A DNA stretch of 64,000 nucleotides from Candidatus Aminicenantales bacterium (GTDB lineage: Bacteria > Acidobacteriota > Aminicenantia > Aminicenantales > UBA4085): the NCBI GenBank assembly GCA_049515535.1, contig JBEKTZ010000008.1, positions 104,173 to 168,172 of the forward strand, in the 5' to 3' direction. The translations under genes were made by a program, and so were the position numbers. Shown here piece by piece: positions 5,573-51,725 of the stretch; the first letter of the stretch is position 1; each line of letters opens with the position of its first letter. The notes under the pieces were generated by a model, which was given only the letters and a program-made list of their open reading frames with translations, was not told where the DNA came from and did not search any database.

Positions 5573-6124
5573 ATGCCCAAGCCCCCGATATTCGCTCATA
5601 TCTGCTGCGCCCCCGATGCGGCGTACGTCGTGGAACTCCTTCAAAAAGATTATGACGTCACGGGATATTTCTACAACCCGAACATCGGACCTCCGGCTGA
5701 GTACGCTCTCCGCCTGTCCGAGACGCGCAAGGTCGAACGCATTCTCGGCTTCGGGCTGGTGGAAGGCGACTATGAGCAGGATCTATGGTCGAGACTCACC
5801 CGCGGGTTCCGGGGCGAACCGGAAAAAGGACGGCGCTGCGATATCTGTTACGCCCTGCGGCTCGATCGAACGGCGCGGAAAGCGGTCGAATCCGGGTTTC
5901 CCGCATTCACGACCATCATGAGCGTTTCTCCCTGGAAGAAGGCGGAGGTCATCAATAGGATCGGACGCCTGATCGGGCGAAAACACGGCCTTCGCTTCCT
6001 TGAAGCTGATTTCAAAAAAAAAGGCGGATTCCAAAAGAGCGTCGAGCTCAGCCGCCTTTACGGGCTCTATAGGCAAAATTACTGCGGCTGCATTTGCAGC
6101 CGGCGGGACACGATCAATAAATGA
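5573..6124 (+). CDS. queH: Epoxyqueuosine reductase QueH (DUF208 family)
   Basis: N-terminal HICCAPDA Cys cluster plus a C-terminal CGC..C pattern. Length ~180 aa, characteristic of QueH. Confidence 0.7.
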   Translation: MPKPPIFAHICCAPDAAYVVELLQKDYDVTGYFYNPNIGPPAEYALRLSETRKVERILGFGLVEGDYEQDLWSRLTRGFRGEPEKGRRCDICYALRLDRTARKAVESGFPAFTTIMSVSPWKKAEVINRIGRLIGRKHGLRFLEADFKKKGGFQKSVELSRLYGLYRQNYCGCICSRRDTINK

Positions 6125-35686: not shown

Positions 35687-38047
35687 TTATCTTCGCCCGC
35701 CCGCTTTGCTCGATTTCAAGCGGAAATTCACGTATTTGCGGAGGAACTTGACCGCATCGTCCGAGCGCCGGAAAACGGGGATTCCCGCCTCTTCCATTTG
35801 CGCCACCATGGGATCATAGGGAGCGCCCGCGTCGACGTTGACGACGAATGGCTTGTCGGTCGCGCGGAAGATCGCGATGAGCCGCGACGACGTGCTGTCC
35901 GGGCTATGGATCGTTTCCGGGTAGCCTTCGCCCGGCGCCAGCGTCTGCATGGCCGGCGTCATCGGCACGGGCGAGATGACGGCGCAATCCACGCCGGGAT
36001 CTTCGAGGAGCGCCCGGGCGCACTCGCAGAAAACCGCGTCATTGGCGACGGGGGTCACGTCAAGCGGGTTCTTGATGTCCTGGAGCTTGTCGATGCCGAG
36101 CGGCGCCAGGGCCCCGGCCAACCGCTTTTTCGTCGCGTCCGAAAGAGCGGCCAAGACGAGGCTCTCGCCGTTTCTGATGCTGTCCGACATGATCACGCTT
36201 TCGAAACCGGCGTTGCTGAGCAGACCGACGCGGTTGCCGCGCGCGGTTTTTCCCGCCAGGTCGCCCAGGCCTTTGATCATGTTTTCGAACTCGAAAATGC
36301 CGTCGGCGACAAAGACGCCGGCCTCTTCGAGCACGGCCTTGCAGACGTCGTATTCGCCGGCGACCGAGGCCGTATGGCTCGAGGTCGCCAGCCGTCCTTC
36401 GGGCGTCCGGCCGCTCTTGTAAAAGACGACCGCCCGCCCTTCTTTCCCGGCGATGTCCCTGGCCGCTTCGGCCAGAAGATAGCCGTCGCCCGGCTTGAAT
36501 CCCTCGGCATAGACGGCGAAAATTTTCACGTCGTCTTCGTCCTTCAAATAGTTCAGGTAGTCCGAAAGGCGGAGGTCGATCTGGTTGCCGAGCGACACGC
36601 CGTAGAGCGGCTCGTAGCGCTGGAGCTTGCTGACGCGACTGATCAGGAACGCCCCGCTTTGACTGATATAAGCCAGGTTCGACGTCGCGGTCTTCGGGAA
36701 TTTGAGCTTATGCTCCGGGATGAACGTCGTGTCGTACCGCCCCGGTTTGGAGTAGATGCCAAGGCAGTTGCCGCCGTTGACGACGGGGGTGAGGCTGCCC
36801 TGGGCGCGGCCGTCGGCAATGAGGCCGGTGATCCGCTCCTCCAGGCTGTGTGTCCCTTCTTTTTCCCCCATCCCTCCGGCGATGATGATGACCGAGCGGG
36901 CCTTGCCGTGGGCGATCAGGTCGGCCATGACGCCATAACACTGGTCGGCCGTGAGGGTGAGGACGAACAGGTCCACGGTTTCGGGAAGCGAGGCGACGTC
37001 CGGGACGCAGAGGCAGCCTTCGATCTGCCGCGGCCCGGGCTTGACGACGTAAACGCGCTCGGGAGGAAACCCGTTCTTCAAGACATTATTGAGGATGATA
37101 TGCCCGAGGTTCATCTTCTCGGAAACGCCGATGACGGCGATGGACGCCGGACGCAGAAGACGCCGGATCTCGGCGAACGGCCGGCCCGTGATGCCGATAT
37201 GCCGCCGCGAAAAGCGGCACAGCCCGTCGAGCGGCAGGAGTTTCCCGGCCCGTACCACGAACGGATTGACCTCGGCTTCCTCGATGACGTAGCGGCCGCC
37301 CGGCCGGAACGGCGAATAATGAGCGGCCAGCCCGCAAAATCCCGAATAAACGTCGCGGAGCTCCGCCGCGCCGAGGACGGCCGGCCGGCCGCGGAAGGGC
37401 TTGACCAGCTTGTCGTAGACGGCGAGCGGCTCCAGATGGGCCGAAACATCTTTTTTCTGAAGGAGATGCGCGGACGCGATCGACGTCGCTTTCCCCTCCT
37501 TGATTCTCGCGTTCAAATATTCGACTTCGACGCCGCCCGCCCCCATCGTGACGATCGGCCCGAATTCCCGCGAATTTCTGACACCGATCAAAAGCTCCGT
37601 CCCGAAGCCGACTTTTTCGTAATCCACCATTTCGCAGACGAGGACTCCGCGGACGTCCCGGCCGATCTCTTCGAGCGACGGGACAGCGGCGCCGTCGTGC
37701 CGGCCATGCGTCCCGGACCATTCCAGGAATCGGCGGGGGACTTCGGCGAGCATGCTCTTGATGCCGGCATTGACGGCCGCGGCGGCGTTCTTGACGAACA
37801 GGACTCCACCGACGTCGGTCTTGTGCTGGATGAGCGGCGCGACGATCTTCAAAACGAGGCCGGCCGACTTGAACCCGGCCAGCCTTTTGGCCCGGACAGC
37901 CTGCCCGCGTTTCACGAACACGAATCTCGGCGTCCGGATCCCGGCCTCTTTGAGCATCTGATAAACTTCATGTTCGAAGAGAAAGGAGCGGCCGTCGTTC
38001 TCGGCGCGGGCGAAGATCGGGTCGATATTCTTGAAAGGAATCGTCAT
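35687..38047 (-). CDS. acd: Acetyl-CoA synthetase (ADP-forming), fused alpha/beta (NDP-forming acyl-CoA synthetase family)
   Basis: CoA-binding and succinyl-CoA-synthetase-like ligase domains plus an ATP-grasp domain in one ~787-aa polypeptide. ATG at 38047 with GGAGA RBS. The long + strand ORF 35501-38374 is antisense to it. Confidence 0.8.
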   Translation of the reverse strand: MTIPFKNIDPIFARAENDGRSFLFEHEVYQMLKEAGIRTPRFVFVKRGQAVRAKRLAGFKSAGLVLKIVAPLIQHKTDVGGVLFVKNAAAAVNAGIKSMLAEVPRRFLEWSGTHGRHDGAAVPSLEEIGRDVRGVLVCEMVDYEKVGFGTELLIGVRNSREFGPIVTMGAGGVEVEYLNARIKEGKATSIASAHLLQKKDVSAHLEPLAVYDKLVKPFRGRPAVLGAAELRDVYSGFCGLAAHYSPFRPGGRYVIEEAEVNPFVVRAGKLLPLDGLCRFSRRHIGITGRPFAEIRRLLRPASIAVIGVSEKMNLGHIILNNVLKNGFPPERVYVVKPGPRQIEGCLCVPDVASLPETVDLFVLTLTADQCYGVMADLIAHGKARSVIIIAGGMGEKEGTHSLEERITGLIADGRAQGSLTPVVNGGNCLGIYSKPGRYDTTFIPEHKLKFPKTATSNLAYISQSGAFLISRVSKLQRYEPLYGVSLGNQIDLRLSDYLNYLKDEDDVKIFAVYAEGFKPGDGYLLAEAARDIAGKEGRAVVFYKSGRTPEGRLATSSHTASVAGEYDVCKAVLEEAGVFVADGIFEFENMIKGLGDLAGKTARGNRVGLLSNAGFESVIMSDSIRNGESLVLAALSDATKKRLAGALAPLGIDKLQDIKNPLDVTPVANDAVFCECARALLEDPGVDCAVISPVPMTPAMQTLAPGEGYPETIHSPDSTSSRLIAIFRATDKPFVVNVDAGAPYDPMVAQMEEAGIPVFRRSDDAVKFLRKYVNFRLKSSKAGGRR

Positions 38048-38115
38048 GGCATCGTCTCCGTTCACAAAAAGGGACAGGGATCCCCTTCCGAAATGAGGTC
38101 CATGTCCCGGAATTT

Positions 38116-38700
38116 TTATCCGGCGGCCCGGCGCCCCAATTCAAAAGCCCTGAGATTCGCCTCGAGGATCTTGTCGCCGCGCGGGGCGAAAAGGACCTTG
38201 ATGAATTCCCGCAGGGATTCCTCGCTCACGGCCAGGTCTTTAGCGGCGGCGCCGAGCAAGACCGTGTTCTGGGCTTTGCTCGTCCCCGCCTCCTTGGCCA
38301 GAGCTTCCGAGTCGATGACGAGGCTGTCCTTGAGCCCCCGAATATGGGCGAGCAGTTTTTCCTTGTCCGGATAATCGGGAATGTTGACGAACGGCGCGCT
38401 GCTTGTGATGACCTTGCCTCCGGGATGAAGGAAATCCAGATAGCGGAGCGCCTCGAGCGGCTCGACGCTGAGGATGAGGTCGGCCTCGCCCCGGGGAATG
38501 AGGTCGCTGTAGATCCGGTCTCTCGACAGCCGAAGGTGGGACTGGACGGCGCCGCCCCGTTGGGCCATGCCGTGGACCTCGGCCTGCTTGACGTTGAAGC
38601 CTTCCTTGAGCGCCGCGTTATCGATGACGAAAGCGATGGACAGAATGCCCTGCCCTCCGACCCCGGCCAGAATGATGTCCTGCTTGCGATGTGAGGCCAT
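38116..38700 (-). CDS. iorB: Indolepyruvate:ferredoxin oxidoreductase beta subunit
   Basis: IorB/pyruvate-ferredoxin-oxidoreductase-gamma fold. N-terminal ILAGVGGQG motif. ~194 aa. Confidence 0.8.
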   Translation of the reverse strand: MASHRKQDIILAGVGGQGILSIAFVIDNAALKEGFNVKQAEVHGMAQRGGAVQSHLRLSRDRIYSDLIPRGEADLILSVEPLEALRYLDFLHPGGKVITSSAPFVNIPDYPDKEKLLAHIRGLKDSLVIDSEALAKEAGTSKAQNTVLLGAAAKDLAVSEESLREFIKVLFAPRGDKILEANLRAFELGRRAAG

Positions 38701-38710
38701 GGCCCTCCTC

Positions 38711-40306
38711 CTATCCCCTGTTCTTCTTGCGGGCTTCTTCGAGGCATTCCCGGTCCGCCACGATCACGGACAATCCTGGATGCCCAATCTCTTCCTTCAG
38801 GATCCGGACATTTTTATCGTGGAACTTGGGCAAGGGAGTGATGACCCGGATATGCTCTTTCGGCACGCCTGCGCCCTCGATGATCTTCAGGAGCCGGTCG
38901 CCCGTGGTGAAGCTCGGTTGGCCGCCGGTCATGGCCACCGTGCCGTTGTCGAGGATGATGACGACCATAGGGGTATTGGAGGCCGCGGCGCTGAGCAGAG
39001 GAGTAATGCCCGAATGGCCGAATGTCGAATCGCCGATGACGGCGACCGCCGGAAAGACGCCGGCCTCGGCCGCGCCTTTGGCCATGCCCACGCTGGCCCC
39101 CATGCAGACGCACGAGTTGACGGCGTTATAAGGAGCGAAATAGCCGAGGGTGTAACAGCCGATATCGCTGAAAACGTTGGCTTTGCTCATCCCCTCCAAG
39201 GCTTTGTTCAGGGCCTTGAACGTATCGGCGTGCGGACAGCCCACGCAGAGTTGGGGCGGGCGGCCCGACAGTTCGAAATCGCTCGCCGCCTGCCGCTCGA
39301 GCGGCTTCAGACCCAACGCGGACCGGACGGTTTCCGGCGACAGCTCGCCGGCGAGAGGGAGGTGTCCGCTGAGCTTGCCAATGAGCTTTTTCCCGGGAAT
39401 GCCGTAGAGCCCCTTGATGCCGCGCTCGATCAGGGGATAGCCTTCCTCGGCCACGAGCACGGTTTCCACGTGGGCGACGAGCTTCCTGACCAGCTCCTCG
39501 GGAATGGGATATGTGGAGATCTTGAGGACCGACGGCTTCCTGGCCTCGGTCCGGATATTTTCCAGGACATAATTATAGGCGATGCCCGAAGCGATGATGC
39601 CCAGGGATTTGTCATCGGGGTTCAATTCCAGGCTGTTGAAGCGCGATTCATCGGAGAATTTAACCAGCTCGGGTTGGAGATCGAGGATCCGCTTGAACCG
39701 GGGCCGGGCGATCATGGGGAGGAGCGTCCAATGCTGCCGCGCCCCGTAATGGAGGTCGTTTTGCGGGCGGGCCTCGCGCGTCGCCACGCCGGCCCGGCTG
39801 TGCGACAGCCGCGTCACCATCCGGATCATGACCGGGATGTCCATTTTTTCGGAAAGATCGAACGCTTCGCGCGTCATGTCATAGGCTTCCTGATGGTCGG
39901 CGGGCTCATAGCAGAAGATCTGGGCGAACTGGGCGTAAAAGCGGCTGTCCTGCTCGTTCTGGGAGCTGTGCATGCTCGGGTCATCGGCCACGACGACGAC
40001 GAGCCCGCCGTTGGCGCCCGTGAGCGAGGCGCTCATGAACGGGTCCGCGGCCACGTTCAGGCCGACGTGCTTCATCGAGACGAGCGCCCGCTTACCCGCG
40101 AAGGACGCGCCGAGGGCTTCCTCGAAAGCCGTTTTCTCGTTCACCGACCAGGCTCCGCTGAAGGCCTTCGTTTTCAGGGAAAGCCGGATCAGGTATTCCA
40201 TGATCTCCGAGGCTGGAGTCCCGGGATAGGAGTATCCGGCCGTCAGGCCCGCGTGGACGGCGCCCAATGCCACCGCTTCGTCGCCGAGCAATATTTCTTT
40301 GTTCAT
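38711..40306 (-). CDS. iorA: Indolepyruvate:ferredoxin oxidoreductase alpha subunit (TPP-dependent)
   Basis: N-terminal MNKEILLGDEAVALGA...GYPGTP, a TPP-binding GDS..G region, and a C-terminal Cys cluster (CVGCPH). Confidence 0.85.
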   Translation of the reverse strand: MNKEILLGDEAVALGAVHAGLTAGYSYPGTPASEIMEYLIRLSLKTKAFSGAWSVNEKTAFEEALGASFAGKRALVSMKHVGLNVAADPFMSASLTGANGGLVVVVADDPSMHSSQNEQDSRFYAQFAQIFCYEPADHQEAYDMTREAFDLSEKMDIPVMIRMVTRLSHSRAGVATREARPQNDLHYGARQHWTLLPMIARPRFKRILDLQPELVKFSDESRFNSLELNPDDKSLGIIASGIAYNYVLENIRTEARKPSVLKISTYPIPEELVRKLVAHVETVLVAEEGYPLIERGIKGLYGIPGKKLIGKLSGHLPLAGELSPETVRSALGLKPLERQAASDFELSGRPPQLCVGCPHADTFKALNKALEGMSKANVFSDIGCYTLGYFAPYNAVNSCVCMGASVGMAKGAAEAGVFPAVAVIGDSTFGHSGITPLLSAAASNTPMVVIILDNGTVAMTGGQPSFTTGDRLLKIIEGAGVPKEHIRVITPLPKFHDKNVRILKEEIGHPGLSVIVADRECLEEARKKNRG

Positions 40307-40501
40307 ATCGAATTCCTCACGATGAAGCCTGGTGTTTTCGAAAAAGAAAGGCCAGGATACAACCGTCTCGAAAAAGAGTCAAGGCGGCCTTATTCCAATT
40401 AATTCGATAATTCCTATAAATTTATGTTGTATTAGGCGCGGGCTTGGAATATGATAAGGATAGTTGGTCTTTGTTCGTTCTTTTCGACAAAGGAGACCGG
40501 G

Positions 40502-40957
40502 ATGATCAAGCTTTCGACCAAAGGGCGTTACGGAACCCGGCTGATGGTCAATCTCGCCCGTCATCATAAAAACAGCAACCGGGCCGTCATCCTGAAAAAC
40601 GTGGCTACGGAAGAAGGCATATCCATCCGCTACCTCGAACAAATTATCATTCCCCTGAAAATCAACAAGCTCGTCAAAAGCATCCGGGGGGCCGGCGGCG
40701 GCTACATCCTCGGCCGGGAACCCGCCGACATCAAGATCTGCGACATCCTGGAGGCTTTGGAAGGGACGTGCAGCCTGGTCGATTGCCTCGAAGACGAGAC
40801 GTTCTGCGATAAGATCAAATCCTGCGGGACCTACGAGATCTGGAAGGGAGCCACCGATCTGCTGAGAGATTACTTCACCCGGATATCGCTCCAGGACGCC
40901 TTGGAAATCTGCGAGAAGAAAGCCGCGGGCTCCAGGAAAAAAGGAAAATCAAAATAA
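40502..40957 (+). CDS. Rrf2 family transcriptional regulator (IscR/NsrR-like, three conserved Cys)
   Basis: N-terminal wHTH (STKGRYGTRLMVNLA). C-terminal CSLVDC...C...C cluster ligands. GGAGACCGGG RBS before the ATG at 40502. Confidence 0.8.
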   Translation: MIKLSTKGRYGTRLMVNLARHHKNSNRAVILKNVATEEGISIRYLEQIIIPLKINKLVKSIRGAGGGYILGREPADIKICDILEALEGTCSLVDCLEDETFCDKIKSCGTYEIWKGATDLLRDYFTRISLQDALEICEKKAAGSRKKGKSK

Positions 40958-40971
40958 CGCGGCCCGCCGCG

Positions 40972-42360
40972 ATGGCAAAGATCTTTCGATTTCTGGCTTC
41001 GATCAAGCTGGCCATCATCCTTCTGATCCTGCTGGCCGTCGCCTCCATTCTGGGGACGCTGCTTCCCCAGATACCGCGGGGCTTCGAGCCGCAGGCGTCC
41101 GCGGATTGGATCGCCTCGTTCCAAGAGCATTATGGAAAGGCCGCCGTTTTTTTCGAAAAGCTGCAACTCATCAAGGTCTACCGTTCGGCCTGGTTCCTCG
41201 TGCTTCTCGGGATCTTCGCTCTCAACCTCATCGTCTGCACGCTGATCCGCCTCTCCCCCAAATATCGGAGGGCGTTCCGGCCGCGCCTCGAAAGCGATCC
41301 CGGAAATCTCCTGGCGCTCAAGACGAGCGCCCGCTTCAAGGCGAACGCGCCCGTGGCCGAAACCGCGGGCGAATTGAAAAGACTCCTGGCCGCCGCGCAT
41401 TACCGGGTCAGAGAGGCCGGCCGGGAATCCCGGATTCTTTATCTGGCCCGGAAAAGAATCTGGGGAATTTTCGGGTCGGACGTGGTCCATCTCGGCCTGC
41501 TCGTCGTTCTTGCCGGCGGTATCCTCAGCGGCGCGGGAAGCGTCCGGAGTCAAATCGAATTCTTCAACGAAGGAGACCTCAGGCCGGTCCCGGGCGCGGC
41601 CTTCGATCTTCGTCTCGACAAATTCGTCACCGAATATTATCCCGGGGGAAGCGTCAAGTCATGGAAAAGCACGCTGACCGTCCTCGAGCGACAAAATCCC
41701 GTCCGGACCCGGGTCGTCGAAGTCAACCGTCCCCTGACTTATCAAGGATATTCATTCTATCAAATGAGCTACGGCTGGAAATGGGACGAGGTGGCCGTCG
41801 AATTCTGGGTCAAAGAAAAAAGCGACGCGGCGTTTCTCCGCAAGCTCAAGCCCAAGATCGGCGAGCGGGTGCTCCTGGACGATAAAGGGCAAACATCGAT
41901 CTCCGTCGAGCGGTTCATTCCCGATTTCGTCCTCGGCGAAGGGAATAAGCCCGAGACTCGATCTCTTCAACCCGGCAACCCGGCCGCTCTGATCAAAGGC
42001 TTTCGCGGAGGAAAAGAAATCTTCTCGGGTTGGATCTTCGCCGACTTTCCAGATTTCGCCCAGATGCACGGCGCCGCGGAAACCGACCTCGTCTTTGAAT
42101 TCAAGAGATTCGACGCCGGGCAATTTCCGGTCATCGAAGCGGCCAGAGACCCGGGTGCCGTCCTGATTTGGCTCGGCTGCGCCCTGGTGATGCTCGGCCT
42201 CGGCCTCGCCTTCTACTGGCCGACCTGGGAAATCAAGGCGTCGCTCGCGGTGAGCCAGGGCAAAACCGAGGTGATCCTGGGCGGTATCGCAGCCAAGGGC
42301 CGGGAGGCGTTCGGCGCCGAATTCGAACGGATCGGGACGTCATTGAAGAGAACAAAATGA
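40972..42360 (+). CDS. resB: Cytochrome c biogenesis protein ResB/Ccs1 (System II)
   Basis: N-terminal TM helix, large periplasmic domain, C-terminal TM helices. ResB-like N-terminus (SIKLAIILLILLAVASILGT). Confidence 0.75.
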   Translation: MAKIFRFLASIKLAIILLILLAVASILGTLLPQIPRGFEPQASADWIASFQEHYGKAAVFFEKLQLIKVYRSAWFLVLLGIFALNLIVCTLIRLSPKYRRAFRPRLESDPGNLLALKTSARFKANAPVAETAGELKRLLAAAHYRVREAGRESRILYLARKRIWGIFGSDVVHLGLLVVLAGGILSGAGSVRSQIEFFNEGDLRPVPGAAFDLRLDKFVTEYYPGGSVKSWKSTLTVLERQNPVRTRVVEVNRPLTYQGYSFYQMSYGWKWDEVAVEFWVKEKSDAAFLRKLKPKIGERVLLDDKGQTSISVERFIPDFVLGEGNKPETRSLQPGNPAALIKGFRGGKEIFSGWIFADFPDFAQMHGAAETDLVFEFKRFDAGQFPVIEAARDPGAVLIWLGCALVMLGLGLAFYWPTWEIKASLAVSQGKTEVILGGIAAKGREAFGAEFERIGTSLKRTK

Positions 42361-43154
42361 ACGAATCGACTCTTTTTCTCATCGCCTTTATCTTTTATGT
42401 TCTTTCGACCATTTTTTATTTAATTTATTCCGCCCGCCTTTTTTCCCCGAAGCCCGGCCTGGCGAAAGCCGCTTCCGCTCTGGCTGTCTCCGGACTCCTG
42501 CTTCACACGCTGGCCCTCATCTTCCGGACGATCGAAAGCGGCCATGCGCCGTTCACGGATATGTACGAGTCGCTCTCGTTCCTCTCCTGGGCCTTAGTCA
42601 TCGCCTTCATCATCATCGACAGAAAATTCGGGATCCCCAGGATCGGATTTTTTCTCATGCTGATCGTCATTGGCCTTGTCGCCTTGGCCTCGTCCCCGCT
42701 CATGCCCAAACAGGCCATGCCGCTCGTCCCCGCTCTCCAAAGCTACTGGCTCTGGCTCCATGTTTCGGTGACGCTCGTCGGGGAGGCCTTCTTCGCCGTC
42801 GCCTTCATCACGAGCCTCATGTATCTCTCGACCCGGGACCCGGCAAAAAAGGAAAAGATGGACGCCGTGAGCTATCGCTGCGTAGCCGTCGGATTCCCGC
42901 TGTTCACGCTGGGCGGACTCGTCTTCGGCATGATCTGGGCCTTCCGGGCCTGGGGGACCTACTGGAGCTGGGATCCGAAAGAAGTCTGGAGCCTGATCAC
43001 CTGGTTCGTCTTCGCTCTTTACCTCCACGCGCGGATCGTCATGGGCTGGAAAGGGAGAAGAACGGCCGTCATCGCCGTCCTCGGCTTCCTGGCCGCCCTG
43101 TTCACCTACTTCGGCGTGAACTATCTGCTCTCCGGCCTGCACAGCTATGCCTGA
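42357..43154 (+). CDS. ccsA: Cytochrome c-type biogenesis protein CcsA/ResC (System II heme handling)
   Basis: Trp-rich WWD-type motif (WGTYWSWDPKEVWSL). Multiple TM helices with conserved His. ATGA overlap with resB. Confidence 0.8.
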   Translation: MNESTLFLIAFIFYVLSTIFYLIYSARLFSPKPGLAKAASALAVSGLLLHTLALIFRTIESGHAPFTDMYESLSFLSWALVIAFIIIDRKFGIPRIGFFLMLIVIGLVALASSPLMPKQAMPLVPALQSYWLWLHVSVTLVGEAFFAVAFITSLMYLSTRDPAKKEKMDAVSYRCVAVGFPLFTLGGLVFGMIWAFRAWGTYWSWDPKEVWSLITWFVFALYLHARIVMGWKGRRTAVIAVLGFLAALFTYFGVNYLLSGLHSYA

Positions 43155-43283
43155 ACCAGCGACGATGCCGGGAAACACCGGCCCCGATCATTCATTCATG
43201 GGATTTCGCCGGAGGAAGGATTTGACTCCGCGGATACGCGAACATAAAATGAAAGAGCCTTCGAAATCGCAAAGGAGAAACAC

Positions 43284-43805
43284 TTGAGGAAAGCGCTGAT
43301 TCCCGCCGCGTTTATCGCCATCGCCGTTTTTGCCCTCGCCGTGCTGAGCCAGGAATTCACCTATATCGGCGCCCAGAAATGCATGCCCTGTCACAAAGGA
43401 GAAAAGATCGGGATGCAAAGCCCGATCTGGGAAAAAAGCGCCCACTCCAAATCCTTCGTCGCGCTGAGCTCAGATCAAGCGGCAGCCGCCGCCCAAGCCC
43501 TGGGCATCAAAGATCCGGCGAGCGCTCCTCAATGTCTGAAGTGCCATTCGCCGCTCTTCGAAAAAGCCCCCGATCTCAAATCCGAGGCTATCGGCTGTGA
43601 AGTCTGCCACGGCCCCGGCAGCGAATATAAGAAGATGAGCAACATGCTGAACAAGGAAGCGGCCGTCAAGGCCGGCCTCAAGGTTTACGGGAGCCCGGAA
43701 GCCATAAAAACAGGGTGCCTCACCTGCCACGCCAACGCTCACGGCAAGACGTTCGATTTCGCCGCGGGTTGGGACAAAATCAAGCATCTCCGTCCGGGGA
43801 AGTAA
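43284..43805 (+). CDS. Tetraheme c-type cytochrome (secreted)
   Basis: Four CxxCH motifs (CMPCH, CLKCH, CEVCH, CLTCH). Signal peptide. TTG start 7 nt after AAGGAG. Confidence 0.75.
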   Translation: MRKALIPAAFIAIAVFALAVLSQEFTYIGAQKCMPCHKGEKIGMQSPIWEKSAHSKSFVALSSDQAAAAAQALGIKDPASAPQCLKCHSPLFEKAPDLKSEAIGCEVCHGPGSEYKKMSNMLNKEAAVKAGLKVYGSPEAIKTGCLTCHANAHGKTFDFAAGWDKIKHLRPGK

Positions 43806-43837
43806 GAGCGGCCGGAAGGATCCGGCCCGGATCGTGA

Positions 43838-44314
43838 ATGGCCATCAAGGAAATTCTCAAGCGAGCCGCGACCGCCCTTCTCATCATTGCGGGCGCTGCG
43901 ACATTAGCGCGCGCAACGACAAACGAGGATTGCCTGGCCTGCCACGGCGATAAAGCCCTCAAAAACGCCGCGGGTCGCTCGATGTTCGTCGATCCGGCGG
44001 CCTTCGCCGCTTCCTTCCACGGCCGGGCCGGGCTGGGCTGCACGGACTGTCACTCGGACCTCAAGAACGTCCAAGATTTTCCCCATATCCAAAACCTCCA
44101 GTCCGTTCGCTGCGCCTCATGCCACCAGGGCTTCGGTCGCCGCCGAGACCTGCCGTGGAGCCGGATCCACGCGGCCTCAAAGACGCCGGAAAACATTTGG
44201 GGAACGATCGTCAAGACGCTCTACCTCGTCCTCATTGTAGGGCTGATGGCGGCGTTCCTGGCGTTCATCGCCGCGGATCTCCGGCAGTGGAAAAGAACCG
44301 CATGGAAACGCTGA
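43838..44314 (+). CDS. Triheme c-type cytochrome with a C-terminal membrane anchor
   Basis: CLACH, CTDCH and CASCH motifs. Signal peptide. C-terminal hydrophobic helix. Confidence 0.7.
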   Translation: MAIKEILKRAATALLIIAGAATLARATTNEDCLACHGDKALKNAAGRSMFVDPAAFAASFHGRAGLGCTDCHSDLKNVQDFPHIQNLQSVRCASCHQGFGRRRDLPWSRIHAASKTPENIWGTIVKTLYLVLIVGLMAAFLAFIAADLRQWKRTAWKR

Positions 44315-45129
44315 CCGGGAACGGGCTCCTCCGCGACGACGAAATCATCCTCCGGATGAGTTTCGCCGAGCGGGCCCAACACATCCTGTTGATCATGACC
44401 TTTGCCGTCTTGATCGTCACCGGGCTCCCCCTCGTCTTGTTTAAAGCTCGGTTTTTCTCATGGCTCATGCCGTCCGCCGCGGCCTTCAATATCCGAGGCA
44501 TCGCGCACCGCGCCGCCGCGATCACGCTGATCGCCGATATCCTTTGGTATGCGGCTTACGCGGTCTTCACGGCGCGCGGGCGGGCCCATTTGCGAGAAAT
44601 GCTTCCGCGCCTTGCCGACCTCCGTGATGCTTGGCGGCTGTTTGGGCACAACTTCGGTCTGACCCAATTCCTGAATGCAAAGGGATGGTTCCGGAATTTT
44701 TTCGACAAGCATCCCGCCTGGCTGTTCCGCGAAGCGCCCGAGTTCGGCCGCTACAGCGTCTTCGAAAAATTCGAATTCTGGTCCATGGCCTGGGGCTCGT
44801 TGATCATGATCCTCAGCGGATTCTTCATTTGGGACGCGGATCTGACGATCAGGATCTTCCCGCTCTGGGTCCTCGATCTTTTCGTCATCATCCACAGTTA
44901 CGAAGCCGTTCTCGCCTTCCTGTCCATCCTCATATGGCACATGTACAACGTCCATCTCAACCCCGACGTTTTTCCGATGAGCCGGATTTGGCTCGACGGC
45001 AAGATCACGGGCCGCGAGCTGCGGACGCATCATCCCCTGGAATACAAGAAAATCCTGGAAGAGCGGAAGATAGCGAAGGGGAGCGGTGAGGATGATCTCA
45101 GCGGAAATGATCGAAGCCGCGGCGCTTGA
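44302..45129 (+). CDS. Membrane di-heme cytochrome b subunit (FdnI / Ni-Fe-hydrogenase b-type cytochrome family)
   Basis: N-terminal R.SF.ER..H....TF.VL..TGLPL signature of PF01292-type cytochrome b. His residues within 4-5 TM helices. Start overlaps the preceding gene by 13 nt. The track start at 44119 is an upstream in-frame extension. Confidence 0.55.
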   Translation: METLTGNGLLRDDEIILRMSFAERAQHILLIMTFAVLIVTGLPLVLFKARFFSWLMPSAAAFNIRGIAHRAAAITLIADILWYAAYAVFTARGRAHLREMLPRLADLRDAWRLFGHNFGLTQFLNAKGWFRNFFDKHPAWLFREAPEFGRYSVFEKFEFWSMAWGSLIMILSGFFIWDADLTIRIFPLWVLDLFVIIHSYEAVLAFLSILIWHMYNVHLNPDVFPMSRIWLDGKITGRELRTHHPLEYKKILEERKIAKGSGEDDLSGNDRSRGA

Positions 45130-46105
45130 GCTCGACCGTTTTCCCGGCCGCCCGATATCTCAGCCCTTCTTTTTTCCCTTCGATCCTTCCGATCCTCGAC
45201 AGCGGGCGGCCGAATTTCCGTTCGAAACCGGCCGTGATTCTTTCATAGCGGTCCGGCCGGATCGTCGCCAGCAGGCAATAATCTTCGCCGCCCGCGGCCG
45301 CCAGGCCCCGGACGTCCCAGCCGTATTTTTTGCCCGCGCGCCGGAGCGGTCCTGACAGGGGAAGATCGTCCAGGTCGACGACCGCTCCGCAATGGGACCG
45401 TTCCATGATCCGCCGCAGATCGGAATCTATGCCGTCCGAAACATCCATCATCGCCGTCACGTCATCCCTCGCCGCCAGCCAGGCGCCTTCGGCCAGGTGG
45501 GCGCGCGGCCGGTGATGCCGGCGGATGAGATGCGCCTCGTCTTTTCCCCGCGGCAGATCATCGAGAAGGACGCGCAGCCCGGCGCCGGAATCCCCTAAAA
45601 ACCCCGTGACGCCTATGATGTCGCCGGTCCGGGCGCCCGAACGCAACTTCAAGCGCGTCCTCCGGACCCGGCCGAGAACAACGACATTGATCACGATGGG
45701 TCCCGGCGATTGGGTCGTGTCGCCGCCGAGGAGTCGAACGCCCGAGGCCTTGGCCTGTTCCGCCATTCCCCGGAAGAACGCATCGAGCCATTCGACATCG
45801 ATCTTGCCGGGAATTCCAAGAGAGAGAAAAGCCGAGCGCGGCGATCCGCCCATGGCCGCGATGTCGCTCAAATTCACGGCCAGCGCTTTGACGCCCAGGT
45901 CGCGCGGCCCGATTTCGCTCCTGAGAAAATGGACGTTTTCGATGAGCATGTCGGTCGTGACGAGGAGGCAGGCGTCTTTTTTCCAAGGCAAGACCGCGGC
46001 GTCGTCGCCGATACCGACGACGCCGGGCGGCAAATCTTTTGAAAACGCCGGCGAGAACCTCCGGATGAGGCCGAATTCGCCGATGGCCGACAGTTTCAAC
46101 TTCAA
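45098..46105 (-). CDS. thiL: Thiamine-monophosphate kinase
   Basis: AIR-synthase-related fold with the ThiL N-terminal motif (GEFGLI...GDDAAV...TTD). Confidence 0.85.
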   Translation of the reverse strand: MKLKLSAIGEFGLIRRFSPAFSKDLPPGVVGIGDDAAVLPWKKDACLLVTTDMLIENVHFLRSEIGPRDLGVKALAVNLSDIAAMGGSPRSAFLSLGIPGKIDVEWLDAFFRGMAEQAKASGVRLLGGDTTQSPGPIVINVVVLGRVRRTRLKLRSGARTGDIIGVTGFLGDSGAGLRVLLDDLPRGKDEAHLIRRHHRPRAHLAEGAWLAARDDVTAMMDVSDGIDSDLRRIMERSHCGAVVDLDDLPLSGPLRRAGKKYGWDVRGLAAAGGEDYCLLATIRPDRYERITAGFERKFGRPLSRIGRIEGKKEGLRYRAAGKTVELKRRGFDHFR

Positions 46106-46749
46106 GACCTCTTCGCCCGATGGAGGTCAAGGACTTTCCTCAGCCGCCGCGCCGCGGCCTCGGGATCGACGGCCGCGCAGACGGCCGATACGACGGCCAA
46201 CCCGTCCGCGCCCGCATCGAGGACCTGCCCGGCGTTGGAATCGTTGATACCGCCGATGGCGACCAGGACATGGCGCGAATGCTTCCGCATCCGGCGCAGG
46301 CCGTCCAGTCCCCAGGCCGCGGCCGTATCGGTTTTGGTCGGCGTCGGGAAGACCGGGCTGACGCCGAGATAATCGACGTCCCATTCCTCGGCTTTCACCG
46401 CCTGGGCCGCATTCTCAACGGAGATTCCGACGATGGCGCCGTGTCCCAGGATCCTGCGCGCGTCCTCATAGGGAATATCCTTTGGACCCAAATGAACGCC
46501 CTCGGCTCCGACGGCGAGCGCCACATCGAGACGGTCGTTGATGATCAGCGGGATGCCGCGGGGCCCCACGATCTTCTGGATCCGGCGGGCCGTCGCGATG
46601 AACTCCCGGATCGAGAGGGCTTTTTCGCGGAGTTGAACCGCCGTGACGCCTCCGCGCACCGCGGCCTCGATCACGGACTCGACAGAACGGCTTCCGGCCA
46701 GATTCCGGTCCGTGACTAAATAGAGACCGAAATCGAGCGCTTTGTTCAC
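46102..46749 (-). CDS. thiE: Thiamine-phosphate synthase
   Basis: LYLVTD start region and TIM-barrel ThiE motifs (GVHLG, GVSPVFPTPTK). Probable GTG start overlapping the thiM stop (GTGA). The Arg-rich upstream extension in the track overlaps thiM and is probably spurious. Confidence 0.8.
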   Translation of the reverse strand: MNKALDFGLYLVTDRNLAGSRSVESVIEAAVRGGVTAVQLREKALSIREFIATARRIQKIVGPRGIPLIINDRLDVALAVGAEGVHLGPKDIPYEDARRILGHGAIVGISVENAAQAVKAEEWDVDYLGVSPVFPTPTKTDTAAAWGLDGLRRMRKHSRHVLVAIGGINDSNAGQVLDAGADGLAVVSAVCAAVDPEAAARRLRKVLDLHRAKRS

Positions 46750-47549
46750 GGGCCTTCGATTTTCAAGCGGCCGGAGATATCGTCTTTTGAAAGCCGGTAG
46801 AGCGCGTCGAAGAAATGCATCTCGAAGCTGCCCGGTCCGCGGGCTTCTATGCCCGCCATTTCGCCGGCGATGCCCATGACCGCCATGGCGTGAGCCGCCG
46901 CGCGCAGAGGCGAAGGGTTGATAGCCGCGAAAGCGCCGGTCAAAGCCGAGGCCGCGCAGCCCATGCCCGTCACGCGCGGCATGAGCGGATGGCCGTTGGC
47001 TACACGAACGACGGCCTCGCCTTGGACAATGACGTCGATGGGACCGCTGACGCTCACGGCGCATCCGAAACTCCGCGACAGGCCTCGGGCGGCTTCAAGC
47101 GCATCCTCGGCGCGGTGCCGGCTGTCCACACCCTTGGTTGCGCGCTCGGCAAAATGAAGCGCCCGGATCTCAGAGGCGTTGCCCCGAAGAATGGTAGGCC
47201 GCCCTTCGTGCAGGATGTGGAGGGCGGTCTCCGTCCGGAACGGCGTGGCTCCGGCGCCGACAGGGTCCAAGACGATGGGGATGCCTTTGGTCCGGGCCGC
47301 CCGCGCGGCCTTGAGCATGGAGGCTACCCAAGACACGCTGAGCGTCCCGATGTTGAGCACAAGCGCGGCCGCCAGATCGACGATGTCCTCGACCTCCTCA
47401 GCCGCCTGGGCCATGACCGGCGAAGCGCCGATCGCGAGCAGGGCGTTGGCGGTCGTATTCATCACGACGTAATTGGTGATGTTGTGGATGAGAGGAGCCT
47501 CTTCACGAATGCGTTCGATGTCCCGCCAGATGCCTTCGAACTCGCTCAT
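46746..47549 (-). CDS. thiM: Hydroxyethylthiazole kinase
   Basis: ThiM family similarity (NITNYVVMNTTANALLAIGASPVM and the Cys-containing ATP region). Confidence 0.85.
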   Translation of the reverse strand: MSEFEGIWRDIERIREEAPLIHNITNYVVMNTTANALLAIGASPVMAQAAEEVEDIVDLAAALVLNIGTLSVSWVASMLKAARAARTKGIPIVLDPVGAGATPFRTETALHILHEGRPTILRGNASEIRALHFAERATKGVDSRHRAEDALEAARGLSRSFGCAVSVSGPIDVIVQGEAVVRVANGHPLMPRVTGMGCAASALTGAFAAINPSPLRAAAHAMAVMGIAGEMAGIEARGPGSFEMHFFDALYRLSKDDISGRLKIEGP

Positions 47550-47705
47550 GGTCGACCCTCCCGAAAGAATTCTTCGGCTTCCCCGGAGCGACGAGCAAGA
47601 GGAATCATTCCCCCCGCGCGCCCGATAAAGTCAAAGGGCGCTTTCCTAAGCTCCCCGTCCCGAAAAAAAGCCCGGCCCGTATCTCCGTGAATGACAACCG
47701 GACGT

Positions 47706-48218
47706 TTATTTCTTCATCTTCGGACAATCTGAGCCCATGGGACAGCCCTCTTCGTTGTGTCCCGCCATGCCGCCCTTGCCCTCTTTCATCTTCGCCGCCC
47801 AGTCCTGGATCTTCTTCACGGTCTCGGGGCTCTTGGCCGAAAGCGTGATCGTCACTCCGTCCTTGGTATTGGTGAATGTCTTCTCGACGTCCTTCATCAT
47901 CATCGGGCAGCTTTCCATCTCGCCCTGTTTCGTCGGCGCACCCTGCATCATCATTCCGCCCATGGGCTTCGCCGCGTCGTTGGGAGTCAAATATTTCTCC
48001 GGGCTCTTGGTGAACTCGGTCTTGCAGCCCTCGCTGCAGAAATAATATTTCGTCCCCTTGTAGTCGGCGGTATATTTAGCCCCGTCGATCTTCACCGACA
48101 TGCCGCAGACCGGGTCTTTGGCCGTTATGGCTCCGGTAGGCTGCTGGGCAATTCCCGTCGCGACGAGGATGAGCGCTGCCGTCAGAAAAATCATCAGCGT
48201 TTTCGAGTTTTTAAGCAT
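47706..48218 (-). CDS. Secreted YHS-domain, Met-rich copper-binding protein (putative periplasmic Cu chaperone)
   Basis: Signal peptide. YHS/TRASH motif (CGMSV...YYFCSEGC). Met-rich tracts (MGGMMMQG, CPMMMKD). Adjacent to copA. GGAGG RBS before the ATG at 48218. Confidence 0.6.
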   Translation of the reverse strand: MLKNSKTLMIFLTAALILVATGIAQQPTGAITAKDPVCGMSVKIDGAKYTADYKGTKYYFCSEGCKTEFTKSPEKYLTPNDAAKPMGGMMMQGAPTKQGEMESCPMMMKDVEKTFTNTKDGVTITLSAKSPETVKKIQDWAAKMKEGKGGMAGHNEEGCPMGSDCPKMKK

Positions 48219-48351
48219 TGGGACCTCCATGAATTTAGGTTTGATTTAAAAGTTATCATATACTTAAATGATAAAAATAATCAAGTTTAGCCCCCGTTCC
48301 GGAGGTGCGCGCCGCATCCGGAAGTCCGGACGCCTGCCGGGGGCTTTTCGC

Positions 48352-50604
48352 TCACGTTATGGAGGCCCGCCGCAGCCGCAGCGAATTCAAGACCACGGAC
48401 ACCGAGCTCGCCGCCATGGCCGCCGAGGCGATCATCGGATTCAGCTGCAAGGGATAGAGGACGCCCGCCGCCACCGGAATGCCGATGACGTTGTAGATGA
48501 ACGCCCAGAACAGATTCTGTTTGATCGTGCGGATCGTCCGCCGGCTCAGCACGATGGCCTGGGCCACGCCGTCGAGGTCGTCCTTGATGAGCGTGATGTC
48601 CGCCGCCTCCATGGCCACGTCCGTCCCCGACCCGATGGCGATGCCGATATCGGCCTGGGCGAGGGCCGGCGCGTCGTTGATGCCGTCGCCGACCATGGCG
48701 ACTTTTTTCCCGGATTCCCTGAGCCTTTGGATCTCGCGGACCTTGTCGGCCGGCAGGAGCTCGGAGACGACGGTCTCGATCCCGGCCAGCTTCGCGACGG
48801 CCTCGGCCGTCCTCCGATTGTCGCCGGTCAACATGACAATCTCCAAGCCGAGCCGTTTGAGCCGATCGACGACCAGGGCGGAATTCTCCTTGAGCGTGTC
48901 CGCGATGGCCAGGAGCCCGGCCGGACGTCCATCCGCCTCGATATAAACGGGGGTCTTCCCCTGGCGCGACAGCTCTGCCGCGCGTTCCGCGAACGCTCCG
49001 AAATCGATCCCCCGTTCAGCCATAAGCCGCTCGTTTCCAATGGCGATCCTCCGTCCATCGACGTCGGCTTCGATCCCCAGGCCTTCGAGCACCCGGAAGT
49101 TTCCGGTCTCGGAGAGCGCGATATCCCTATTCAGAGCTTTTTTCAGGATAGCCTCGGCCAGAGGGTGTTCGGATGTCTTTTCGGCGCTCGCGGTCCAGCG
49201 GAGCACGTCCTCTTCGGAAAAAGGGGCCGCCGCGAAAAAGTCCGTCACTTCGGGCTCGCCCTTGGTAAGCGTTCCCGTCTTGTCGAAAACGATCGTCGTG
49301 ATCCTGCCGGCCGTTTCCAGGCTTTCGCCGCCCTTGATCAGGATCCCGTTTTCCGCCCCTTTTCCCGTCCCGACCATGACCGCCGTAGGCGTGGCCAGAC
49401 CCAAGGCGCAAGGGCAGGCGATGATCATCACCGCCACGAAATTCAAGAGGGCGGACCTTAGGGCGGGCTTGCTGCCGAAGGCCATCCAAGCGCTGAAGGT
49501 CAAAATCGCGATGGCCATGACGACCGGGACAAAATAGCCGGCGATGACATCGGCCAGGCGCTGGATGGGCGCCTTGGAACCCTGCGCTTCCCGGACGAGC
49601 CTGATGATCTGGGCCAAGGCCGTATTCATTCCGACCTTGGAGGCCCGGAATTCAAAGCTGCCGGCCTTGTTCATTGTCGCGCCGATGACCTCATCGCCTT
49701 CTCTTTTTTCGACGGGCAGGCTTTCGCCGGTGAGCATCGATTCATCGACGGCGGACCGCCCTTTCGTGACGACGCCGTCCACCGGCAGCTTTTCGCCGGG
49801 CCTGACGACCACGATATCGCCGACGGCGACATCCTTGACCGGAATATCGATTTCGGCGCCGTCGCGCCGCACGCGGGCCGTTTTCGGTTGGAGGCCGATC
49901 AACTTTTTGATGGCTTCGGACGTCTGCCCCGTGGCCCTGGCTTCGAGCATCCGGCCGAAAAGAATGAGGGTGATGATGACCGCCGACGTATCGAAATAGA
50001 CCTCGGGCGGGGCGATCCCACCGGCCGCGAAAAACGAAGGGAAAAGCGTTGCTGCGGCGCTGTAAAGATAGGCGGCCGATGTGCCCACGGCGACGAGAGT
50101 GTTCATGTCCGCCCGGCCGTGTCTCGTCGCCGCCCAGGCGCCTTTATAAAAGCGACGGCCGATCCAGAATTGCACGGGCGTCGCCAAGGCCCAGAGAAGG
50201 ATATGATTGTTGAGAAAACGCGGCAGCCAGGGGAAGAATTGGGGGGAGCTGCCCAAGAAAATGACGGCACTGAATCCCAGCCCGACCCAGAAAGCCCGAT
50301 TTAACGTCTTGAATTCACGCTCCCGGACCAGGCGCTCGGCGTCTTCCCCGTTTTCTCCTTCAACCTTGATGACTTCGTAGCCGGCCGACTGAATCGCTTT
50401 TTCGATGTCGACGGGCTTGATGAGCCGGGGGAGGAAAAAGACCGTCGCCCGGGCCGTGGCGAAATTGACGTTGGCGTTCTCGACGCCGGCCAGGTTTCTC
50501 AAGGCCTTCTCAATATTGGCCGCGCAACCGGCGCAGTTCATTCCTCCGATCGGCAGATCGATCCGCTCGGCTTTATCGGCTTTATCGTGAATTTCAGGTT
50601 CCAT
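48352..50604 (-). CDS. copA: Copper-translocating P1B-type ATPase
   Basis: N-terminal HMA domain (GMNCAGC), CPC transmembrane motif, DKTGT phosphorylation site, and GDGINDAP. Confidence 0.9.
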
Positions 50605-50720
50605 GTCTTTCAGTATAGCAGAGATCGAGGCCGTTTCCAGCCGTTCCGTTCCGTGCCTATCCTTGACGGCCCGCGGACTGGCACATACAATAGGGCGGCA
50701 TTCGAAGAAGGACGCGCATC

Positions 50721-51725
50721 ATGAAGAAAGAGCAAATTCCGGGCTGGATCCTGATGATCGCCGTCGGCGTCGTCTCCATGATCCTGTCAAACCTGGTCAC
50801 GGCCGGCGGCAAGCATCCCCTGGAGGCCACGGCCCTGGCCGTCGTCATCGGCATCCTCGCCCGCAACCTGGGCCTCGTCCCGAAAATATTCCATCCCGGC
50901 ATCAAGGCCTTTGAAAAATTCCTGATCTGGGGCGTCATTCTGATCGGCGCCACGCTGAACTTCAAGGATTTCCGGTCCCAGGGACCGAAGATGCTCACGA
51001 TCATCCTGGTGACCATGCTCGTCAGCTACTTCGTCATTTACGCGCTCGGGCGGCTTTTCAAACTGCCCTGGTCGCTGTCCACGCTGCTCTCGGTCGGAAC
51101 GACGATCTGCGGCGGCTCGGCCATCGCCGTCACCGCCCCATTGATCAAGGCAAAGGAGGAGGAGACGAGCTACGCCATCGGAACGATCACGCTTTGGGGG
51201 CTCGTCGCCATCCTTCTCTATCCGAAGCTCGCCCAACTCGTCGGCGCAAGCGATATCCAATTCGGCGTCTTCGCCGGAACGGCCATCCACGCCACGCCCC
51301 AGGTTGTCGGCGCCGGATTCATCTTCTCCGACCTGGCCGGGAAAACCGCCACAGCGATCAAACTCGTGCGCAATTGCTTCATGGCCCCGCTCGCCTTTTT
51401 CATCGCCGCCTGGTACACGAAAACGTCCATCGATTCCGCGAAAAAAGACCATCAGCGCGTCAACTTCGCCAAGGCTTTTCCTTGGTTCCTGTTCGGTTAT
51501 TTCATCATGGCCGGCCTGAACACCGCCGGGTATTTCACGAAGGCCGGCCTCGACGGACTGACTTGGCTGGGACGGTTTTTGATCATCGTCTCCATGGCCG
51601 GTATCGGGCTAAACACGGTCTTCGCCACGTTCAAAAAGGTCGGGCTGAAGCCGCTTATCGTCGGCCTCCTCGGCGCCCTGGTCGTCGCCAGCGTGAGCGT
51701 CACGATGATCGCCCTTATGCTCTAG
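50721..51725 (+). CDS. YeiH/UPF0324 family putative sulfate-exporter-type membrane protein
   Basis: ~10 TM helices with Gly-rich reentrant-like segments characteristic of PF03601. Confidence 0.65.
   Translation: MKKEQIPGWILMIAVGVVSMILSNLVTAGGKHPLEATALAVVIGILARNLGLVPKIFHPGIKAFEKFLIWGVILIGATLNFKDFRSQGPKMLTIILVTMLVSYFVIYALGRLFKLPWSLSTLLSVGTTICGGSAIAVTAPLIKAKEEETSYAIGTITLWGLVAILLYPKLAQLVGASDIQFGVFAGTAIHATPQVVGAGFIFSDLAGKTATAIKLVRNCFMAPLAFFIAAWYTKTSIDSAKKDHQRVNFAKAFPWFLFGYFIMAGLNTAGYFTKAGLDGLTWLGRFLIIVSMAGIGLNTVFATFKKVGLKPLIVGLLGALVVASVSVTMIALML

Follow-up and report, generated by a model that had tools for sequence, protein, structure and literature searches.

A compact cytochrome locus in a Candidatus Aminicenantales genome, read as a reduced quinone-linked b/c-type complex

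Cbc-type inner-membrane quinol:cytochrome c oxidoreductases set the redox window and the energy yield of extracellular respiration and, to our knowledge, are known almost only from Geobacter; no complete structure of a Cbc-type complex is cited in the literature that we found. The locus described here belongs to Candidatus Aminicenantes, uncultured bacteria usually described as fermentative, and lies in a 64-kb stretch of contig JBEKTZ010000008.1 from a Candidatus Aminicenantales bacterium (hereafter the window, numbered from its first nucleotide). Six plus-strand genes at 40502-45129 encode an Rrf2-family regulator, the System II cytochrome c maturation proteins ResB and CcsA, a tetrahaem c554-like cytochrome, a trihaem c-type cytochrome and a cytochrome b. 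These genes and their upstream surroundings are laid out as follows:

38711-40306, minus strand: iorA, divergent from rrf2
40307-40501: iorA-rrf2 divergent spacer, 41.5% guanine plus cytosine (GC), with both promoters inside it
40502-40957, plus strand: Rrf2-family regulator, 151 aa (PF02082, 108.9 bits)
40972-42360, plus strand: ResB, the CcsB-type System II cytochrome c synthesis protein (PF05140, 242.9 bits)
42357-43154, plus strand: CcsA/CcsB, System II haem handling (PF01578; TIGR03144, 253.9 bits against a cut-off of 187.6)
43284-43805, plus strand: c554-family tetrahaem periplasmic cytochrome, 173 aa, four CxxCH motifs (PF13435, 50.3 bits)
43838-44314, plus strand: trihaem c-type cytochrome, 158 aa, three CxxCH motifs and a C-terminal transmembrane anchor
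44302-45129, plus strand: FdnI-type dihaem cytochrome b, 275 aa, four transmembrane helices (NCBIfam, PDB profile search and fold search)

A preliminary description of this DNA, made from the letters alone, had named the same six genes, and family and profile matches together with the CxxCH counts bear out all of them. Its count of four plus three c-type haems, its divergent placing of iorA and rrf2, and its two gene overlaps also hold: resB and ccsA share an ATGA at 42357-42360, and the trihaem and cytochrome b genes overlap by 13 nt (ATG at 44302, TGA at 44312-44314).

The cytochrome b has no Pfam match even at E 10, although most of its homologues carry PF01292. A profile built from 48 homologues has a single match in the PDB, FdnI of E. 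coli (1KQF_C, E 2.5e-8), and the AlphaFold2 model (mean predicted local distance difference test score 79) finds the same chain as its only fold match, with a probability of 1.0 and a template-modelling score of 0.75. His27, His69, His198 and His213 align with the FdnI haem ligands His18, His57, His155 and His169, and all four are invariant in the 48 homologues. The protein has the four transmembrane helices of an FdnI/HydC-type dihaem cytochrome b, with one histidine in the first helix, one in the second and two in the fourth, so that the di-haem b-type membrane subunit proposed earlier is an FdnI-type protein with its full set of haem ligands. It is not a formate dehydrogenase-N gamma subunit proper: TIGR01583 gives 41.5 bits against a cut-off of 115.85, and no fdnGH genes lie beside it, its neighbours being the cytochrome genes and thiL. 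The homologues come almost wholly from metagenome-assembled genomes of Candidatus Aminicenantes, with at most 63% identity among species representatives. Between the second and third helices lies a cytoplasmic insertion of ~60 residues (residues ~90-152) that has no equivalent in FdnI and might form part of the quinone site or bind a partner. Many charged residues are invariant in this region (R92, D106, D109, R150, E155, K156 and E158).

The trihaem protein begins with a signal-like N-terminus and contains, besides its three CxxCH motifs, exactly three further conserved histidines, which would suffice for three bis-His haems. Hydropathy and the AlphaFold2 model both place a transmembrane helix at the C-terminus (residues ~119-150), followed by a basic tail; the model puts a low-confidence linker before this helix, and the helix itself carries no histidine. 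Its origin is suggested by a MAFFT alignment with the relatives' genes that stand upstream of cytochrome b, in which the protein retains the N-terminus and haems 1-3 of the long forms and then, directly after haem 3, continues with the segment found behind haem 11 (xGxGxxFxKGxIH…EN…, then the transmembrane helix). On this alignment the trihaem protein represents the 11-haem partner of cytochrome b after a collapse that kept the reading frame; haems 4-11 were probably lost when the sequence was joined in frame at a CxxCH motif. Intermediates with five haems occur at two loci of relatives (L011 and L017), and an exhaustive search, used in place of a word-indexed homologue search that had returned only two matches, brought up trihaem-plus-anchor proteins of 150-172 aa in five or more further clusters at 50% identity.

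Two side observations concern the same protein. In L050 (9329-10825) and L056 (5541-6926) a 5-haem cytochrome is joined in frame to an FdnI-like cytochrome b, and in P0255 a 3-haem cytochrome is joined in the same way; these fusions are CbcL-like single-polypeptide versions of the pair. The anchor helix also contains an aspartate, D147 (FIAADL), which is invariant in nine aligned short forms and present in most aligned long forms.

A fold search with the AlphaFold2 model of the trihaem protein returned nothing significant (best NrfA, E 0.79, and MtrA, E 1.1), and the 11-haem protein of L002 had no PDB match by phmmer at E ≤ 1e-4. The profile of the short forms is best matched in the PDB by 28pb_A, "Cytochrome c", 278 aa with at least 7 CxxCH motifs (E 4.6e-10), and the window sequence alone matches that entry weakly (E 0.0046 only). 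This entry may be CbcA, for which a 2026 review gives "PDB 2BPB" (PMC13591261); the code 28pb itself appeared in none of the papers searched. The protein does not belong with NapC/NirT/NrfH, having a C-terminal anchor and three haems, and the NrfH model scores far below its cut-off with both small cytochromes (E 0.021 for the trihaem protein and E 0.0074 for the c554-like protein).

The c554-like protein starts with a TTG that aligns with the ATG of its orthologues and carries a signal peptide. Its PF13435 score stands well above the cut-off of 20.8, placing it in the c554 family; its best solved relative is PDB 1BVB (E 2.4e-6, residues 27-157), and it is 53-73% identical in relatives. It shares the tetrahaem c554 family with Nitrosomonas europaea cytochrome c554 (CycA; 1BVB/1FT5), but it is not the CycA equivalog, scoring 48.1 bits with NF043010 against a cut-off of 400, and it is shorter, with 173 aa against 211 aa. 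The window locus also differs from that of Nitrosomonas in having no gene for hydroxylamine oxidoreductase or cM552 nearby, and no hydroxylamine oxidoreductase-like or further CxxCH genes were seen within the 64 kb.

The chromosomal slot that holds these genes is filled in most relatives by a much larger gene cluster, of the metal-respiration kind. At ~60 of the 80 loci fetched, the cytochrome b gene closes a conserved cluster, whose full order is:

resB, ccsA; a 683-aa 17-haem NapC/NirT-like cytochrome; a Rieske protein and bc-type cytochrome b; a 9-haem cytochrome; c554; a 9-haem cytochrome; an 11-haem cytochrome; FdnI-like cytochrome b

Beside the full clusters there is often a gene for a DmsE-family decahaem cytochrome together with one for an MtrB/PioB porin; both proteins score above their NCBIfam cut-offs, as in L002, where the two reach 272.8 and 276.6 bits. 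Since the genes downstream of the full clusters (thiL-thiE-thiM-YHS-copA) and upstream of them (iorBA-rrf2) are those that flank the window genes, the window locus is the positional orthologue of the large cluster. Compared with the large cluster (e.g. L002, L004 and L052), the shared proteins are 47-64% (ResB), 65-80% (CcsA), 53-66% (c554) and 54-63% (cytochrome b) identical. Missing from the window are MtrAB, the two 9-haem cytochromes, the 17-haem NapC/NirT-like protein and the pair formed by the Rieske protein and its cytochrome b, and the window counterpart of the 11-haem subunit has three haems. No tblastn match to the large-cluster genes, MtrAB included, and no further multihaem open reading frame was found in the window. 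We found no description of the large cluster in the literature searched, which mostly calls the phylum fermentative.

The compact form recurs at L090, where iorBA is followed by rrf2-resB-ccsA-c554-trihaem-cytochrome b and then thiL; the trihaem protein there has 169 aa, and identities to the window are 81% for IorA, 73% for c554 and 59% for cytochrome b. When the cytochrome b sequences are arranged by neighbour joining, loci with the short form turn up at scattered places between 11-haem loci, which suggests repeated shortening. The tree was used solely for this scatter, as the long branch of the window has probably influenced where it falls, and odd haem counts in it (e.g. the labels 5h, 7h and 9h) may stem from frameshifts or contig ends.

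Several further states of the slot were observed. At L092 (6001-10094) only rrf2-resB-ccsA is present, followed directly by thiE/thiM, which represents the empty state. At L082 (6479-10354) rrf2-resB-ccsA-c554 is followed by a 122-aa open reading frame corresponding to the C-terminal half of cytochrome b, with neither the trihaem gene nor the N-terminal half of cytochrome b. The L082 record is labelled Clostridiales and its genes are Aminicenantes-like; many records labelled "uncultured Eubacteriales/Clostridia" likewise carry the cluster, so these labels look unreliable. At L011 (2114-8718) a resistance-nodulation-division efflux operon (HlyD, AcrB and an outer-membrane factor) and an insertion-sequence integrase (rve_3) lie between ccsA and c554, at the spot that the NapC-like and Rieske/cytochrome b genes occupy in other genomes. 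A second, paralogous pair of a multihaem cytochrome and an FdnI-like cytochrome b, 26-33% identical to the first, adjoins the main pair at L005, L007, L008, L032, L048, L064, L065, L074, L076, L077 and L081.

We read the window module as a functional, reduced, quinone-linked b/c-type cytochrome complex, whichever way its electrons run, and put the probability of this reading at about 0.65. The locus holds two units. The first, rrf2-resB-ccsA, would combine an iron-sulfur (Fe-S)-type regulator with the System II pair of the genome behind a conserved promoter. The second, c554-trihaem-cytochrome b with a sigma-70-type promoter of its own, would encode a minimal b/c-type quinol:cytochrome c oxidoreductase. 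In this arrangement the four-helix cytochrome b would hold two b haems across the membrane, with a quinone site that FdnI would place on the cytoplasmic side, and the bis-His trihaem cytochrome would be held to it in the periplasm by the C-terminal helix, much as the FdnH anchor does in formate dehydrogenase-N or CbcA does in the CbcBA of Geobacter. The soluble c554-family protein would be the periplasmic carrier. Electrons would then pass from menaquinol to the cytoplasmic-side haem b, the periplasmic-side haem b, the three c haems and c554, and finally to a periplasmic acceptor or reductase encoded elsewhere. The whole would descend from the large Aminicenantes cluster, with or without MtrAB, as its reduced orthologue. 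The sequence data show which genes are present and what they are related to, that haem ligands and promoters are conserved, that the slot is orthologous and that the genes are under selection; the assembly into a complex, the choice of quinone, the course of the electrons, the physiological partner and the targets of Rrf2 are inferred. The preliminary description had proposed a self-contained conduit from quinol to multihaem cytochromes; its quinol/quinone-linked anatomy agrees with what we find, and the stand-alone module gives way to the orthologue of a larger cluster. Its suggestion of extracellular electron transfer is unsupported here because the window contains no outer-membrane component.

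The closest architectural parallels come from Geobacter sulfurreducens. There the 7-haem cytochrome CbcA, which carries a transmembrane helix at its C-terminus, and the four-helix dihaem CbcB together make up a quinol oxidoreductase (bioRxiv 10.1101/2021.04.15.440034; PMC13591261), in which three histidines of CbcB and one proposed from CbcA ligate the b haems (bioRxiv 10.1101/2021.04.15.440034). The window pair shares with CbcBA (Cbc5) the anchored multihaem c-type cytochrome and, as a protein of its own encoded next to it in the same operon, a dihaem cytochrome b of four helices, as well as fused b-c relatives in other lineages. In this sense it is of the CbcBA type; the likeness is one of architecture. 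The two differ in the number of c haems (three against seven), in the source of the b-haem ligands, which in the window all lie in the b subunit, in regulation (a sigma-70-type promoter against sigma-54/BccR control) and in the carrier (a c554-family protein against PpcA or CbcC). CbcL, a menaquinol oxidase, joins a dihaem b domain to a bis-His multihaem periplasmic domain (PMC9129911). The window pair has the same two parts, and its fused relatives in L050, L056 and P0255 come closer still, but CbcL is one polypeptide with six transmembrane helices and nine c haems, whereas the window has two polypeptides, four helices plus an anchor helix, and three c haems. E. coli FdnI (1KQF chain C) with FdnH likewise pairs four aligned haem-b ligands with a periplasmic partner held by a C-terminal anchor helix; in the window that partner is a c-type cytochrome in place of an Fe-S protein, and no catalytic genes of formate dehydrogenase are nearby.

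As to the direction of electron flow, analogy leads us to lean slightly towards quinol oxidation. In the opposite scheme, a periplasmic donor would pass electrons through c554, the trihaem protein and the two b haems to menaquinone at the cytoplasmic face, generating a proton-motive force as formate dehydrogenase-N does. FdnI, the only solved homologue, works this way, carrying electrons towards quinone with its quinone site on the cytoplasmic side (1KQF); Nitrosomonas c554 also passes electrons towards the quinone pool, and many invariant charged residues sit in the cytoplasmic loop between the second and third helices. We nevertheless consider this direction the less likely one: no periplasmic dehydrogenase or oxidase that could act as donor is encoded in the window, the architectural relatives CbcL and CbcBA act as quinol oxidases, and the MtrAB-type conduits of the full clusters could run either way.

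Several observations weigh against a functional complex of the kind proposed, in either direction. The window encodes no acceptor, donor or outer-membrane partner, and the anchor helix of the trihaem protein is without the histidine that CbcA is proposed to give to a b haem. The cytochrome b sits on a long branch, 59-63% identical to all relatives where neighbouring genes reach 72-81%, which may reflect relaxed constraint. Against the closest strains (synonymous divergence, dS, about 0.05), the ratio of non-synonymous to synonymous substitution (dN/dS) is higher, at 0.2-0.67, calculated from very few substitutions. The slot also decays further in other genomes, to half a cytochrome b in L082 and to no cytochromes in L092.

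Followed to its end, this line would make the three cytochrome genes a decaying remnant without function, heading for deletion now that the bc-type complex, the outer-membrane conduit and the large multihaem cytochromes have gone. The slot in relatives does display all stages of such a loss, from the 5-haem forms through the half gene to nothing, and the long branch and the c554 gene, whose dN/dS is the one that reaches 0.67 between closest strains, are in keeping with it. The state of the genes themselves makes it very unlikely. The haem motifs, the distal histidines and the b-haem ligands are all intact, and the 13-nt coupling overlap and the promoter are kept. An identical locus occurs in several metagenomes, gene lengths are unchanged in strains with a 93% identical cytochrome b, and L090 has kept the compact form at a protein divergence of roughly 20-40%. 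As the closest strains offer too few substitutions, dN/dS was compared with L093, whose proteins are 84-90% identical: at dS 0.2-0.4 the values are 0.12 for c554, 0.26 for the trihaem gene and 0.21 for cytochrome b, equal to those of the neighbouring thiL (0.32), thiE (0.20) and thiM (0.18). Because the compact form recurs in L090 and its dN/dS of 0.12-0.26 resembles that of the flanking thi genes, the module is probably functional, and we conclude from these comparisons that it is intact, translationally coupled and maintained by purifying selection.

The maturation genes and the regulator appear to belong to the slot rather than to the cytochromes. ResB and CcsA are encoded together and CcsA contains the tryptophan-rich haem-handling motif WGTYWSWDPKE, which identifies the pair as System II. 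The preliminary description had called these genes dedicated to the adjacent cytochromes; they are not, because the rrf2-resB-ccsA backbone exists even without adjacent cytochrome genes, filling the slot by itself in L092, and in other genomes the resB-ccsA pair heads clusters of very different content. Gene order across relatives thus presents iorBA, rrf2-resB-ccsA and thi as a conserved backbone of which resB-ccsA are fixed members.

The regulator scores 108.4 bits with the Rrf2 family model TIGR00738 (cut-off 73.3) and stays below the subfamily equivalog cut-offs for IscR (107.4 vs 207.55 bits), CymR (108.6 vs 195), RirA (54.7 vs 193) and NsrR (37.6 vs 182). Where three cysteines had been reported, it has four clustered ones, C90, C95, C102 and C108 (Cx4Cx6Cx5C), invariant in 33 homologues; with three or more cysteines taken as the mark of the type, this predicts an Fe-S-type regulator. 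Among relatives it is 65-83% identical, above the cytochromes, and it stays beside iorBA whatever comes after; in L089 rrf2 is present without resB directly after it. The regulatory features of the locus are the following:

40335-40344: palindrome TTTTCGAAAA, in the iorA 5' leader
40354-40382, minus strand: iorA promoter-like site from a promoter scan, −35 TTGACT (40382-40377) and −10 TATCCT (40359-40354)
40406-40455, plus strand: rrf2 promoter block, in which GATAATTCCTATAAATTTATG abuts the −35 TTGTAT (40427-40432), with a 17-nt spacer and the −10 TATGAT (40450-40455)
43222-43250, plus strand: near-consensus sigma-70-type promoter TTGACT-17-TAAAAT, upstream of the c554 gene

An alignment of the iorA-rrf2 spacers of five orthologous loci (the window and four others) shows that the GTCAAG and GCTAGGATA elements of the iorA promoter site are conserved, as is the AT-rich block TCCTATAAATTTATG, which directly abuts the rrf2 −35. 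Within the rrf2 block, GATAATTCCTATAAATTTATG includes the palindrome ATAAATTTAT at 40416-40425. This rrf2-proximal block occurs also in L082 and L085-L087, and it is the best operator candidate, and the likely site, for autoregulation by Rrf2. Read on the minus strand (40406-40433, …TAATACAACATAAATTTATAGGAATTA…), it resembles the B. subtilis CymR box, a likeness that serves as a lead only.

The preliminary description had instead proposed TTTTCGAAAA as the operator. The palindrome does lie in the spacer, but we rejected it for this role: the four orthologous spacers do not conserve it, and it falls within the iorA leader, downstream of the conserved −10 of that gene. A 10-nt palindrome appears at least once in 18% of shuffled spacers, which is not beyond chance, and TTCGAA-type hexamers are frequent across the window (37 copies). 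A second exact TTTTCGAAAA was noted within resB at 41150-41159, with near-copies at 40365 and 40481.

The promoter upstream of c554 is conserved in L090, L082 and L083 while the sequence around it is not. Because the cytochrome genes have this conserved promoter of their own, Rrf2 does not simply head one block, as the whole set had been read before; a better description is that of a conserved Fe-S-type regulator which probably controls its own gene and is co-transcribed with resB-ccsA. A single Rrf2-headed operon, with dedicated maturation genes, a self-contained quinol-to-extracellular conduit and TTTTCGAAAA as operator, could draw on the co-orientation and tight spacing of the genes (14 nt between rrf2 and resB, then the resB/ccsA overlap), on the recurrence of the order rrf2-resB-ccsA-c554… in L082, L085-L087 and L090, and on the two copies of TTTTCGAAAA within 1 kb where 0.26 would be expected per 64 kb, but it is improbable given the internal promoter, the L092 and L089 arrangements, the unconserved leader position of TTTTCGAAAA, the lack of a second window copy of the rrf2-proximal block at up to 3 mismatches, and the lack of MtrAB or other outer-membrane cytochrome genes in the window.

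Returning to the reduced quinone-linked complex, all of its parts are of known kinds: System II, Rrf2, the c554 family, an FdnI-type cytochrome b and an anchored multihaem partner. What is new here is the compact 3-haem form; it brings no new principle and does not overturn current understanding. Tentatively, and with more doubt than confidence, we suggest that the module might be the smallest natural b/c-type quinol:cytochrome c oxidoreductase (two b and three c haems with a 4-haem carrier), produced by in-frame recombination between CxxCH motifs that cut 11 haems to 3, and that such shortening, to five or three haems or with fusion to cytochrome b, took place independently in several Aminicenantes lineages after loss of the conduit and the bc-type complex. 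If this were true, the length of a haem wire would be an evolvable, selectable trait, and the module would offer a compact, tractable model for the link that CbcBA/CbcL-type enzymes make between periplasmic cytochromes and the quinone pool in uncultured bacteria that live largely by fermentation. The series from 11 through 5 to 3 haems at one orthologous locus provides a clear natural case of modular multihaem shortening, and the pair of 158 aa and 275 aa is a small target for expression and structural work. The known physiology of the phylum is extended by the finding that most Aminicenantes genomes carry a large syntenic cluster for respiration and extracellular electron transfer, of which some lineages keep only a selected minimal core.

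Some minor features of the window complete the picture. An Rfam scan of 38000-51000 returned no RNA family. The other functions encoded in the 64 kb include peptidases, glycoside hydrolases, HypF, transketolase and similar. No hydrogenase was seen in the window; the organism probably has one, because HypF, the [NiFe]-hydrogenase maturation carbamoyltransferase, is encoded at 6121-8400. The start of resB has no obvious Shine-Dalgarno sequence upstream, and the 14 nt between the rrf2 stop and the resB start (40958-40971) are filled by the GC palindrome CGCGGCCCGCCGCG. At the other end of the locus, the genes for cytochrome b and thiL converge and share 32 nt at their 3' ends (45098-45129). A last feature lies in the gap between the two small cytochrome genes:

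43810-43827, plus strand: perfect 7-bp hairpin GGCCGGA-AGGA-TCCGGCC, in the c554/trihaem intergene

This GC-rich hairpin lies within a gap of 32 nt, is followed by no T-run, and might govern how much carrier is made relative to the membrane complex.

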